Assembly (NCBI GenBank): GCA_021782495.1
Contig: JAJXUV010000001.1
Coordinates: 24,810-88,809 of the forward strand
Source: Pseudomonadota bacterium
GTDB taxonomy: Bacteria > Pseudomonadota > Gammaproteobacteria > UBA1113
Direction of reading: 5' to 3'
DNA length: 64,000 nt
Positions within the stretch are counted from its first letter, which is position 1. The number at the start of each line of letters is the position of its first letter. This document shows, one piece after another, positions 24,585 to 26,834 of this stretch. The position numbers and the translations under genes were made by a program. Under the pieces are notes generated by a model. The model did no database searches. It saw only the letters and a program-made list of their open reading frames with translations, and was not told the origin of the DNA.

Positions 24585-24863
24585 AGCCCACTTAACATTC
24601 TACACTCGCCAATTCCTTAGCTTTTTTAGCGGTTTTTTTTGATTTTGAGCACCGCAAAGTTCCTCTCTATGGTTGTTTCTGTTCCTATGACCTCCAGCGC
24701 TTCTTCTGGAGCAACCAGGTCGGCGATTAACTTTCCCGTATGTGTGCTATCAACGTTTTTTGTTTAGAGGGGCTTTATGGTAACCCATTGATTTGATTGA
24801 GTGTTTTCTCTAATTCACGCACTTTAGCGAAGGTGTCAATAATTAATAAAGTGGTCTGTGTTC

Positions 24864-25031
24864 CTATGGGACTTTTTCTATAAAAGCTTTTGGCAAGGTA
24901 TAAGAAAACCTCAAATTTTTGAGGTGGTCACAATTTGCGGCTACCTCATCTTTTTCATCTTGAGTGAACTGAATAACATCGCGAATAAATAAAATTTTAT
25001 CTTTAACTTCTTTGTCAGTGATCACATTCAT
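24864..25031 (-). CDS. Small ORF (55 aa) with weak resemblance to an ORF6N/KilA-N-type DNA-binding domain fragment
   Basis: ..ILFIRDVIQF..VAANCDHLKNLRFSYTLPKAF.. resembles the core of the ORF6N consensus; AT-rich context. Confidence 0.2.
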   Translation of the reverse strand: MNVITDKEVKDKILFIRDVIQFTQDEKDEVAANCDHLKNLRFSYTLPKAFIEKVP

Positions 25032-25232
25032 CTTGTATTCTCTACTCCATAGAAATAGGGAACACATTATAGCATAAAAAAGATATAACTACAAGATTAT
25101 AATTTCTTTTTTCGTTTTTTTTCAATCTAGTGTGCACTAGGCATATCTTTCATACAACAAAGTAAATTTTATCATTACATTTCATACGAACAATTCATTG
25201 GCTAAATGTTTTGCTAATAAAATATTGCTATT

Positions 25233-26759
25233 TTGATGCGTTTTAGAGTATCATATGCATTGATTGATAAATATAACCCCATGCTAGGGCTTGGATACGG
25301 AGACCGTTATATGACACAACTGAAAAATATCGTCAGCTATCAAGACGAAGGTACGGGTTTGGTGCGCTTGTCTTGGACCGCAGTACGGGAACGTGTGGCT
25401 GCTGTCAATCCATTATTTTGTGCGTTGATGGATCAATTCGATCCCGGCACAAAATTTTCATTTTATCTCGCCTATTATCCTTATGGTGCCAAACTCGGTG
25501 ACGACAAATCCACTTATATCCCCACCATGAACGGCACATTCCTAACACTGGATAACGATTCACTTCATTTCAGTTCGGAATTAAAAGAAGATCTGCTCTA
25601 CGCTTATACGCCCTTGTCTATGATTCTCAACAAATCGGCAGAAATGTACATCGATCTCAAAACCGTTCAATTGACTTTACCTGTCATCATGTTATATCCC
25701 GGTTCATTTATAGCCACTCGACAATTGTTAAATTTAAAACATGGCGACACAGAAAGCCATCATATTCATACCGTCGCCGCAGGTTGTCGCTCTACGTTTA
25801 TGTTACCGCCTATCAGTTGTAGCCGCCACTTTGCCAATGTTCGCGAGGCCTTGCATATTAATTTAGATAAACCCAATAATTTGTATCAACAGGGTCCTGT
25901 CTTTGCCGAGTTGGCACAAAGCCCTTTTGGCGATTGCGATTGGCGTATGATGGTACTCTTTTTTCCGCGCTTACTGGTTGAAACGATTAAGCACACGCCT
26001 CGAGGCCGCGATCTTTTACTGTATTTCTACGATTATGCTGCACAGCACTATTTAAACGATTCACTGGATTCTGAATTAACCAGTTTGATTTTAACGCGCG
26101 CGCAAGAAGAACAAAAATTAAAAGGCGATCCTTACCTCGCCGACACCGCGCGTCACATTTATAAAATTGCAGCGGGTCGTATTCCAGGTTTTGTACCAGC
26201 CGTGGATGAAACCCATTTACCCCGCAATTTTTTACAGAAAATGATCGTAGAATGGTATGGGGCGACGCAATACTATCCCACTATTTTACATCCTAGTTAT
26301 TTCGATTTACAAGCCGATAGCCCTTTACCTGTGTATTATTGTCGTCAATATCCCACGACTTTTGCAGCCTCTCCCAGAATACGCAGTAATGCCAGTATCA
26401 AATATGAATTTTCTGCTTTACAAGGCTTATTAGACAGTACTGGCACAGGGCTCAGAAGCCGTGCACCCACCTTAGACAATGCTTTTTGGAAACGGCTTGC
26501 GACCTTAGTCGATATACGAACTTTTCACACCACCAGCAGAAACATCAATGTCACCAAACTCAGCGGTTCTTTACCCCGCGTCGATCCCCGTTTCAGCGAA
26601 AAAACCTGTACAGTCCTCAAAGAAGGGATGCATTTTTGTGATGAGGGAGATTTTGCCCGTGGTTTTGTCGCCATCCGAACCAAAGCCTATTTGGATAATT
26701 TATTACAAGAAGATGAAACTTTGAAAGAGGGTTTATCTGTAAATCATCGAAAAGAGTAG
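25233..26759 (+). CDS. Hypothetical protein (508 aa; alternative start at 25311 with a GGAG SD), unknown function, inserted between rsmG and parA
   Basis: Long intact ORF in an AT-rich insert; no TM segments or known motifs recognised. Confidence 0.55.
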   Translation: MMRFRVSYALIDKYNPMLGLGYGDRYMTQLKNIVSYQDEGTGLVRLSWTAVRERVAAVNPLFCALMDQFDPGTKFSFYLAYYPYGAKLGDDKSTYIPTMNGTFLTLDNDSLHFSSELKEDLLYAYTPLSMILNKSAEMYIDLKTVQLTLPVIMLYPGSFIATRQLLNLKHGDTESHHIHTVAAGCRSTFMLPPISCSRHFANVREALHINLDKPNNLYQQGPVFAELAQSPFGDCDWRMMVLFFPRLLVETIKHTPRGRDLLLYFYDYAAQHYLNDSLDSELTSLILTRAQEEQKLKGDPYLADTARHIYKIAAGRIPGFVPAVDETHLPRNFLQKMIVEWYGATQYYPTILHPSYFDLQADSPLPVYYCRQYPTTFAASPRIRSNASIKYEFSALQGLLDSTGTGLRSRAPTLDNAFWKRLATLVDIRTFHTTSRNINVTKLSGSLPRVDPRFSEKTCTVLKEGMHFCDEGDFARGFVAIRTKAYLDNLLQEDETLKEGLSVNHRKE

Positions 26760-26834
26760 CGCCTAAGACTTTTGCTATTATCTTAAATATGTTAGATTAG
26801 ACGATATACATCACTAACTCGCTGGGAGTACATC

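Follow-up and report, generated by a model that had tools for sequence, protein, structure and literature searches.

The usual genomic surroundings of the lpg0062 family resemble the split-borosin (type IV, SonM/SonA-like) RiPP clusters of Legionellales, in that its members are most often accompanied by a SonM-like alpha-N-methyltransferase, by a 62-aa ORF and by an MFS transporter. Legionellales borosin clusters that carry no borosin-binding domain are described in two preprints (bioRxiv 10.1101/2021.12.24.474128 and 10.1101/2024.01.09.574750), the searched passages of which make no mention of the lpg0062 family. Pfam and NCBIfam hold no model for this family, and a literature search retrieved no paper on it. 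To our knowledge, no biochemical function has been established for any of its members.

In the window, that is, the whole 64-kb stretch of DNA that was analysed, a member of this family was found in the 2,250 bp that separate rsmG (end 24584) from parA (start 26835), and it differs from the typical members in having no borosin, ATP-grasp or transporter neighbours. The features of the interval and its flanks are as follows.

23973..24584, plus strand: rsmG (gidB), bordering the islet on the left (Pfam GidB, E 9e-58)
24638..25063, minus strand: ORF6N-domain pseudogene, disrupted by two or more frameshifts, an in-frame stop and internal deletions (collinear tblastn matches)
24864..25031, minus strand: residual 55-aa ORF, a piece of the ORF6N relic still called by gene callers (tblastn)
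25096..25125, minus strand: promoter-like TTGAAA-18-TATAAT, 11/12, facing the ORF6N relic (a consensus match only)
25127..25140, no strand: 6-2-6 inverted repeat CTAGTG-TG-CACTAG between two divergent promoter-like sites (single occurrence)
25225..25254, plus strand: promoter-like TTGCTA-18-TATCAT, 9/12, upstream of the 25311 start (consensus match)
25311..26759, plus strand: gene for a 482-aa lpg0062-family protein (maximal ORF from TTG 25233)
26685..26756, plus strand: acidic C-terminal tail KAYLDNLLQEDETLKEGLSVNHRKE, specific to the window clade (tail-length comparison of 66 family members)
26835..27638, plus strand: parA, the right flank of the islet (Pfam AAA_31/ParA; start GTGCCACACATTATCG conserved in relatives by alignment)
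27625..28578, plus strand: parB (ParB_N/HTH_ParB)

Taken as a whole, we consider it fairly probable that the interval is an old islet of mobile origin, that the intact gene in it belongs to the lpg0062 family as a divergent orphan, and that this family acts together with peptide-modifying modules.

The initial annotation had regarded the interval as inserted between rsmG and parA, which would otherwise be contiguous, and had proposed a synteny comparison, the outcome of which agreed with that view. In two relatives (L097 and L098) the site is empty, rsmG and parA being directly adjacent with gaps of 112 and 189 bp, and the same junction carries other cargo elsewhere, namely a broken AAA_14/DUF4143 gene together with PhzF in L089 and L091, and genes differing from the window cargo in L087. 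Among 76 homologue loci, not one places the lpg0062-family gene between rsmG and parA, and no other homologue there was found to adjoin chromosomal parA or rsmG. On the basis of the empty sites, the alternative cargo and this absence among the family loci, the interval is an insertion and not the ancestral arrangement. Its origin from a mobile element, which had also been proposed, is borne out by the ORF6N pseudogene beside the gene and by the presence of the family on 30 PLSDB plasmid records (27 conjugative, 29 from Legionella). The islet at the rsmG-parA junction is therefore of mobile-element origin, and consists of a decayed minus-strand ORF6N gene and an intact plus-strand gene, which may have arrived jointly or separately.

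The frameshifted minus-strand ORF6N pseudogene takes up most of the spacer. The 55-aa ORF, previously noted as an ORF6N/KilA-N-like fragment, has real ORF6N homology, as it matched annotated ORF6N proteins of Legionella plasmids by tblastn (E 5e-7, 60% identity). Full-length ORF6N proteins (from plasmids of L. pneumophila LPE509 and of L. fallonii) proved to be collinear with 25063-24638 in three frames, with a whole-window E of 4e-10 (tblastn): query residues 42-76 correspond to 24977-24873 (60% identity), residues 86-128 to 24876-24748 (51% identity, with the stop inside) and residues 131-163 to 24739-24638 (50% identity), while residues 15-25 are weakly matched at 25063-25031 and residues 26-41 and 77-85 are missing. 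Judging from its reading frames, the spacer ORF6N gene is a pseudogene. Although its pieces are collinear with, and 50-60% identical to, the Legionella plasmid proteins WP_144054598.1 and WP_045097844.1, the plasmid gene adjoins a tyrosine integrase, whereas the relic in the window is frameshifted, truncated and stop-interrupted, and has neither integrase nor attachment repeats. The Pfam search returned no match for the 55-aa ORF alone, and for the stitched three-frame translation of the spacer it returned no ORF6N, the sole hit being a weak one to AAA_14 (E 0.019); a phage collection likewise contained no match to the 55-aa ORF. An interpretation of the spacer as an AAA_14/DUF4143 relic based on that hit was dropped, as the AAA_14/DUF4143 proteins and PhzF of the relatives matched nothing in the spacer by tblastn.

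Several small motifs pointed out in the initial annotation fared differently. The near-palindrome CTAGTGTGCACTAG does exist, once, as the inverted repeat at 25127-25140, and is absent from all homologue loci examined. The terminator-like GCTTTTTTAGCGGTTTTTTTT downstream of rsmG, on the other hand, was not detected by the terminator scan, folds with only -2.6 kcal/mol (z +0.93 versus shuffles), and turned out to lie inside the ORF6N relic as the reverse complement of its Lys-rich C-terminus. Nor are the repeated TGTTCCTATG motifs more frequent than expected by chance, since the two exact copies both fall inside the pseudogene and 3 matches at one mismatch or fewer were counted in the window against 3.14 expected. 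A search of Rfam over 24400-27000 gave no matches.

With respect to composition, the description of the interval as an AT-rich 2.2-kb insertion applies only to the non-coding spacer of about 0.7 kb (GC 0.343), and not to the large ORF, whose GC (0.43), GC3 (0.405) and codon bias (0.24) are all mid-range among the genes of the window. Alignment of one flank with the other scored no better than shuffles for direct or inverted att or target-site repeats, and the direct repeat CTAAATGTTTTGCTAATA / CTAAGACTTTTGCTATTA bracketing the ORF was not significant and was rejected as a boundary repeat. No integrase relic was found in the spacer by tblastn mapping, so the integrase and the attachment or target-site repeats that mark an integrative element are both missing. 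When the regions upstream of parA in relatives were aligned, similarity was confined to the ribosome-binding site and the start of parA, which leaves the right-hand boundary of the insertion undefined. Since the gene matches the other genes of the window in GC, GC3 and codon bias and the att or target-site repeats are absent, the islet is old and compositionally ameliorated; the native composition of the gene itself implies an old acquisition.

The intact maximal ORF (25233-26759) encodes 508 aa from a TTG. However, the ATG at 25311 has a GGAG placed 8 nt before it and corresponds in alignments to the N-terminal ends of homologues, giving 482 aa, and the promoter-like site at 25225..25254 is situated downstream of both the 25233 and the 25236 start, another point in favour of 25311. 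The true start is thus most likely ATG 25311, and the product of 482 aa instead of 508, so that the earlier account of an intact 508-aa ORF devoid of recognisable domains holds for its intactness and for the lack of database domains but probably not for its length. With a maximum 19-residue hydropathy of 1.26, the product can be assigned from its sequence as a soluble cytoplasmic protein of 482 aa.

Homology searches identified this protein as a divergent orphan member of a large, Legionellales-restricted family that includes lpg0062 of L. pneumophila. The homologue search yielded 53 homologues, among them P0002 (E 5e-133, 48% identity, 90% coverage), and the family profile retrieved the window protein at E 4e-158. 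The family comprises 1,406 clusters at 50% identity, and 72 of 76 family loci lie in Legionellales-type or unclassified gammaproteobacterial records. The window protein is homologous to the family over its full length (identities of 24-48% across roughly 90% of the length) and shares its two-domain architecture and most of its conserved motifs.

The profile and structure searches suggested in the initial annotation gave a divided outcome. No match to the large protein was found in Pfam, NCBIfam, PHROGs or PADLOC, or by sequence and profile searches of the PDB, but the AF2 model, which is confident and covers residues 36-508 of the TTG ORF, corresponding to the conserved core, predicted an N-terminal CNBD/CRP-like fold, a helix of about 38 residues and a C-terminal alpha/beta domain. 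In the model, the N-terminal domain takes the form of an eight-stranded beta-roll with flanking helices, as is characteristic of a CNBD, whereas the C-terminal domain has no structural match to known folds. The likeness to CNBD and CRP-FNR proteins (PF00027 fold) is at fold level only, with 8-16% identity, and the window protein differs from CRP-FNR in being twice as long and in its C-terminal domain without structural match. Pfam cNMP_binding gave no match at E up to 1, and hhalign gave no sign of a relationship to E. coli CRP (probability 0.04%). No phosphate-binding cassette of the CNBD type could be recognised in the protein; the invariant G-x-R-S lies in a hairpin that may or may not be its counterpart. 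The predicted beta-roll may bind a small ligand and would be coupled via the helix to the C-terminal domain, which is the putative working part and carries most of the family-invariant residues, with the motifs NPYLADTAxH, PGFxP, YxPT, VYYS, DxRF and FxRGC. The interest of the family lies in its size, its restriction to one order, its inclusion of a gene of a model pathogen, and its combination of a predicted CNBD-like domain with a domain that has no structural relative.

As for the genomic partners, MFS and TP_methylase genes are convergent with the family gene in 37-39 of 76 family loci, and the adjacent TP_methylase is SonM-like (E 9e-46 to PDB 7ltc). One genome contains two paralogous modules (L049 and L061), and a plasmid cassette combines the family gene with N-methyltransferase and MFS genes. 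Because the family gene and the borosin genes are convergent and not co-transcribed, the argument for a functional link between them is their conserved adjacency and their co-duplication. On conjugative Legionella plasmids, by comparison, the family gene leads an operon continuing with ATP-grasp, ThiS, ThiF, YcaO and TfuA genes. From these contexts, the family would usually act with modules for ribosomal-peptide modification and export, either split-borosin and MFS or ATP-grasp/ThiS/ThiF/YcaO/TfuA, and its role might be tailoring, recognition, regulation or immunity. The repeated association with split-borosin clusters, YcaO/TfuA/ATP-grasp clusters and conjugative plasmids is a useful by-product of the analysis. 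Unlike the paralogues elsewhere, the window copy has no SonM-type N-methyltransferase or precursor beside it, and no homologues of the N-methyltransferase, the MFS transporter or the 62-aa ORF/precursor were detected in the 64-kb window. Its six closest relatives also have neither borosin/MFS nor ATP-grasp/YcaO partners. Considering that the window clade and several deep clades are without peptide-cluster neighbours, the role of the family need not depend on peptide clusters.

The best surviving alternative, although we regard it as unlikely, is an effector role, in which the protein would be translocated as a Dot/Icm type IVB substrate and its clade would have been freed from the peptide clusters and have acquired a C-terminal translocation signal. 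A disordered C-terminal signal with an acidic E-block serves as a criterion for such effectors. The window clade has a specific tail of 22-25 aa, rich in Glu, Ser and Thr; in that of the window protein, QEDETLKEGLSVNHRKE, the acidic stretch falls within -10 to -17, and its E, D, E and E at -16, -15, -14 and -10 resemble the published E-block. Like the Dot/Icm effectors of Legionella and Coxiella, the family has an order-restricted distribution, and the window clade occurs in variable locations, one of them beside icmF-dotU. In UniRef the L. lytica homologue bears the name 'Substrate of the Dot/Icm secretion system', and an 840-aa ankyrin protein is also encoded in the window, which makes it likely that the organism is effector-rich. 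Against these points, lpg0062 is absent from the catalogue of 368 L. pneumophila effectors, which does contain lpg0059 and lpg0080, and is unmentioned in the paper text searched; searching for homologues with the L. lytica member as query brought up nothing but hypothetical proteins, the name that all the other homologues bear. Furthermore, most of the 66 members compared end 5-10 residues past the last conserved strand, the tail is modelled by AF2 as a helix (with pLDDT falling to 61-79), no eukaryote-like domain is present, and, in a manner differing from effectors, the family shows strong enzyme-like conservation and is embedded in bacterial biosynthetic operons. An effector role of the window protein is hence possible yet unsupported, but the clade offers a defined group for Legionella effector screens to examine. 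We give still less credence to a broader proposal in which the family would act in the peptide natural-product pathways of Legionellales as an undescribed component of novel structure, possibly as the recognition or maturation partner that borosin clusters without a binding domain are missing, and in which the window clade would have left this context, gained the acidic tail and become a Dot/Icm effector.

It is similarly improbable, in our estimation, that the gene is a decaying remnant whose ORF remains open yet is no longer functional, following the path of the ORF6N pseudogene. Of 41 positions conserved in at least 90% of 69 sequences, six are changed in the window protein (W222L, D229T, W232G, L283I, S344C and C452F), four of the six replaced residues being kept by all six clade relatives, and in a quick neighbour-joining tree of the family the window copy forms the longest branch in its clade. 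The loss of these near-invariant residues and the long branch, along with the missing partner genes and the already dead adjacent ORF6N gene, would fit decay. Nevertheless, the 1.45-kb ORF has stayed intact while the neighbouring 0.5-kb gene took at least two frameshifts and a stop, the protein retains the other 35 conserved positions as well as every one of the 21 invariant columns of alignment A2, codon usage is native, and the gene has a good Shine-Dalgarno sequence, a promoter-like site and a confident AF2 model. We therefore retain the reading of a divergent family member; considering the six replacements and the lack of a partner within 64 kb, its function is probably altered or relaxed.

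By far the least probable reading is that an ancestral or housekeeping gene occupies this position, or that the spacer belongs to oriC or the partition machinery: the gene does lie on the parAB strand only 75 bp upstream, with a negative terminator scan in between, and a family member occurs about 4 kb from plasmid parAB on pLPL and pLLO, but the sites are empty in relatives, the other homologues are never beside chromosomal parA or rsmG, and the "replication and segregation hotspot" of the initial annotation found no counterpart in the spacer, which has no DnaA-box cluster (no box at one mismatch or fewer in 24585-25310), or in the GC skew, which is negative without a switch throughout the 64 kb. 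The locus itself is an old islet of an ordinary kind, at a site that varies in a lineage-specific manner, and no special explanation is needed for it.

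The gap between rsmG and parA, hereafter the islet, was 2,250 bp long and contained a large ORF on the plus strand, preceded by a long spacer. Full-length ORF6N proteins encoded on plasmids could be mapped onto the spacer as collinear minus-strand pieces in three different frames, as listed below together with the genes.

23973-24584, plus strand: rsmG (Pfam GidB, E 9e-58)
24739-24638, minus strand: ORF6N residues 131-163
24876-24748, minus strand: ORF6N residues 86-128, with an in-frame stop within
24977-24873, minus strand: ORF6N residues 42-76
25063-25031, minus strand: ORF6N N-terminal piece (weak match)
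25233-26759, plus strand: large ORF in its maximal form (508 aa, TTG start)
26835-27638, plus strand: parA, right flank of the islet

Public gene callers placed the start of the large ORF at ATG 25236 (507 aa). Because the homologue N-termini aligned at Met27 of the 508-aa ORF, GGAG was located 8 nt 5' of ATG 25311, and a promoter-like site (25225-25254) lay downstream of the starts at 25233 and 25236, the large gene was taken as a predicted 482-aa coding sequence at 25311-26759. An imperfect direct repeat (25202-25219 / 26763-26780, 14/18 nt, core TTTTGCTA[A/T]TA) brackets this gene, just before the start region and just after the stop, and was not significant against shuffles.

A 55-aa minus-strand ORF in the spacer was not recognized by Pfam, and a tblastn search against plasmids matched it at 60% identity (E 5e-7) to annotated ORF6N-domain proteins from plasmids of L. 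fallonii and L. pneumophila LPE509. Together with the collinear full-length mapping, this match bore out the ORF6N identity proposed in the initial annotation, and the spacer is, as judged from its sequence, a dead ORF6N gene whose relic occupies most of its length. The T-rich "terminator" proposed there did not hold up, as its fold (-2.6 kcal/mol) was worse than most shuffles (z +0.93) and went unreported by a terminator scan; it is the reverse complement of the Lys-rich C-terminus of the relic. The supposedly repeated TGTTCCTATG motif occurs in two exact copies, both encoding "IGT(E/Q)T" stretches within the relic, but its count in the window at <=1 mismatch equaled expectation, and the near-palindrome CTAGTGTGCACTAG is indeed present as a single 6-2-6 inverted repeat and is missing from all related loci. 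No Rfam family matched in the islet region. Each of the two plasmids has its ORF6N gene in a divergent pair with a tyrosine integrase; neither an integrase relic nor flanking repeats survived in the window. An ORF6N-like fragment was also seen ~0.8 kb upstream of a family homologue in a deep-clade MAG (L082 5100-5228; L-numbers denote loci from relatives or family members).

The large protein had no match in Pfam, NCBIfam, PHROGs, PADLOC or PDB sequences. Homologues of ~450 aa numbered 53 in a word-indexed search, and profile searching across 1.84 billion cluster representatives yielded 1,406 clusters at E <=1e-3 and 809 at <=1e-30. An exact look-up placed L. pneumophila lpg0062 (Q5ZZE8) in this family, whose members are all named "hypothetical protein" except for one UniRef label (L. 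lytica); no mention of lpg0062 was found in paper texts. Among 76 family loci in GTDB species genomes, 72 came from Legionella, Fluoribacter, Coxiellaceae, Legionellales or unclassified (gamma)proteobacterial MAG records, the other four being three bins labelled Rickettsiaceae, Myxococcales and Francisellaceae and one weak match in a tick Coxiella endosymbiont. Some genomes carry two or three paralogues. In PLSDB the family was detected on 30 plasmids (29 Legionella and 1 Francisella), 27 of them conjugative; the Francisella plasmid lies outside Legionellales.

At 37-39 of the 76 loci, the family gene is directly followed by convergent genes for a PF00590 methylase and an MFS transporter, often with a 62-aa ORF beyond them. 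[quoted passage not shown] The neighbourhoods concerned are as follows.

L018-L085, e.g. L044 6001-9529 and L001 1967-5483: loci with the neighbouring-gene observation
L093 (pLPL) 5913-11821 and L094 (pLLO) 5888-11818: ATP-grasp/YcaO/TfuA operon on conjugative Legionella plasmids

The gene order of the module varied (methyltransferase adjacent, or MFS between), with adjacency kept. One Legionella MAG carried the whole module twice, in diverged copies (L049, L061), Fluoribacter gormanii possessed both paralogue groups, and the LPE509 plasmid carried the family gene with a borosin-type methyltransferase and MFS. On pLPL and pLLO, the family gene is first in an operon and overlaps an ATP-grasp gene, followed by ThiS, ThiF, YcaO and TfuA; this operon resembles a thioamide-type peptide cluster and lies ~4 kb away from the parAB genes of the plasmid. 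The partners of the family gene in deep clades were a peptide-transporter-like protein and a class-I SAM methyltransferase. We infer that the family acts together with peptide modification and export modules. Legionellales borosin clusters without the borosin-binding domain are described in two preprints (bioRxiv 10.1101/2021.12.24.474128; 10.1101/2024.01.09.574750), in the searched passages of which no mention of an lpg0062-family neighbour was found; a Pfam-based analysis of such clusters would miss it.

An AlphaFold2 model of the large protein from the 53-sequence alignment reached pLDDT 89.2 and pTM 0.89. The modelled N-terminal domain resembled the cyclic-nucleotide-binding (CNBD/CRP) fold at the fold level only, and hhalign detected no relationship to E. 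coli CRP. No hydrophobic segment was found in the protein. A neighbour-joining tree placed it in a clade of seven (43-48% identity), as the basal member on a long branch. All seven lack peptide-module partners; the clade contexts varied (BrnT toxin module, icmF-dotU, acyl-CoA genes), and no methyltransferase or MFS homologue was found within the 64-kb window. The clade has a specific C-terminal extension of 22-25 residues absent from the rest of the family, which reads ...LLQEDETLKEGLSVNHRKE in the window protein. Such a tail, the variable contexts and the confinement of the family to one order would suit an effector, but lpg0062 is not in the catalogue of 368 effectors and the family is embedded in operons, and we regard an effector as unlikely. 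That the gene is a decaying remnant seems quite unlikely: six of 41 positions conserved at >=90% were changed in the window protein (W222L, D229T, W232G, L283I, S344C, C452F), four of which retain the consensus residue in all six clade relatives, as would fit decay, but the 1.45-kb ORF is intact, with native codon usage, beside a thoroughly broken neighbour.

Indeed, the GC3 (0.405 vs a mean of 0.391, sd 0.044) and Karlin codon bias (0.24 vs 0.277, sd 0.057) of the large ORF are unremarkable among the 43 long ORFs of the window. The description of an AT-rich 2.2-kb insertion therefore applied to the spacer (GC 0.343) and was wrong for the gene itself (0.43; rsmG 0.412, parA 0.428, whole window 0.418), which, if foreign, is long resident.

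Relatives were located with the RsmG of the window as query and their contigs were read. In L097 and L098 (RsmG identity 65% and 59%), rsmG and parA are immediate neighbours, separated by 112 and 189 bp, whereas in L089 and L091 (65-67%) the gap holds different cargo:

L089 5668-7215 and L091 5620-7610: split or truncated AAA_14/DUF4143 ATPase gene and PhzF-family gene

Within this lineage, insertions have thus recurred at the rsmG-parA junction. L087 (72%) shares the upstream synteny (PHO4, PhoU_div, UPF0149, mnmG, rsmG) and then continues with unrelated genes. No rsmG or parA was found within 6 kb of the large-protein homologue at any of the 76 loci, which, with the empty gaps, passed the check proposed in the initial annotation and showed that the gene is not ancestral here. 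The initial annotation stood in part as to its observation, and its insertion interpretation stood with corrections. The spacer contained no DnaA box with <=1 mismatch, GC skew was negative throughout the 64 kb, and there was no sign of oriC. An ancestral or oriC-related reading is contradicted by these results.

On balance, we consider it reasonably probable that the islet is an old mobile-element remnant with a decayed ORF6N gene and surviving orphan cargo of the lpg0062 family. A mobile element would have brought it in long ago, the ORF6N gene would then have decayed, and the cargo gene would have survived as a divergent orphan, encoding a putatively cytoplasmic, ligand-binding two-domain protein derived from an accessory role in a peptide cluster. 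The locus as such is ordinary; what merits pursuit is the uncharacterised family with its connection to plasmids and peptide clusters.

Elsewhere in the window, an 840-aa ankyrin-repeat protein (58284-60806, minus strand) has a low GC3 of 0.33, typical of Legionellales effector-like genes. Two large ORFs without a Pfam domain, 62410-63996 (minus strand, 528 aa, GC 0.39) and 2132-3520 (minus strand, 462 aa, GC 0.37), are below average in GC. A UPF0149-type protein (21200-21898, plus strand) carries a long Asp/Glu run in its C-terminal third, and the position of its gene upstream of mnmG is conserved in L087 and L098.
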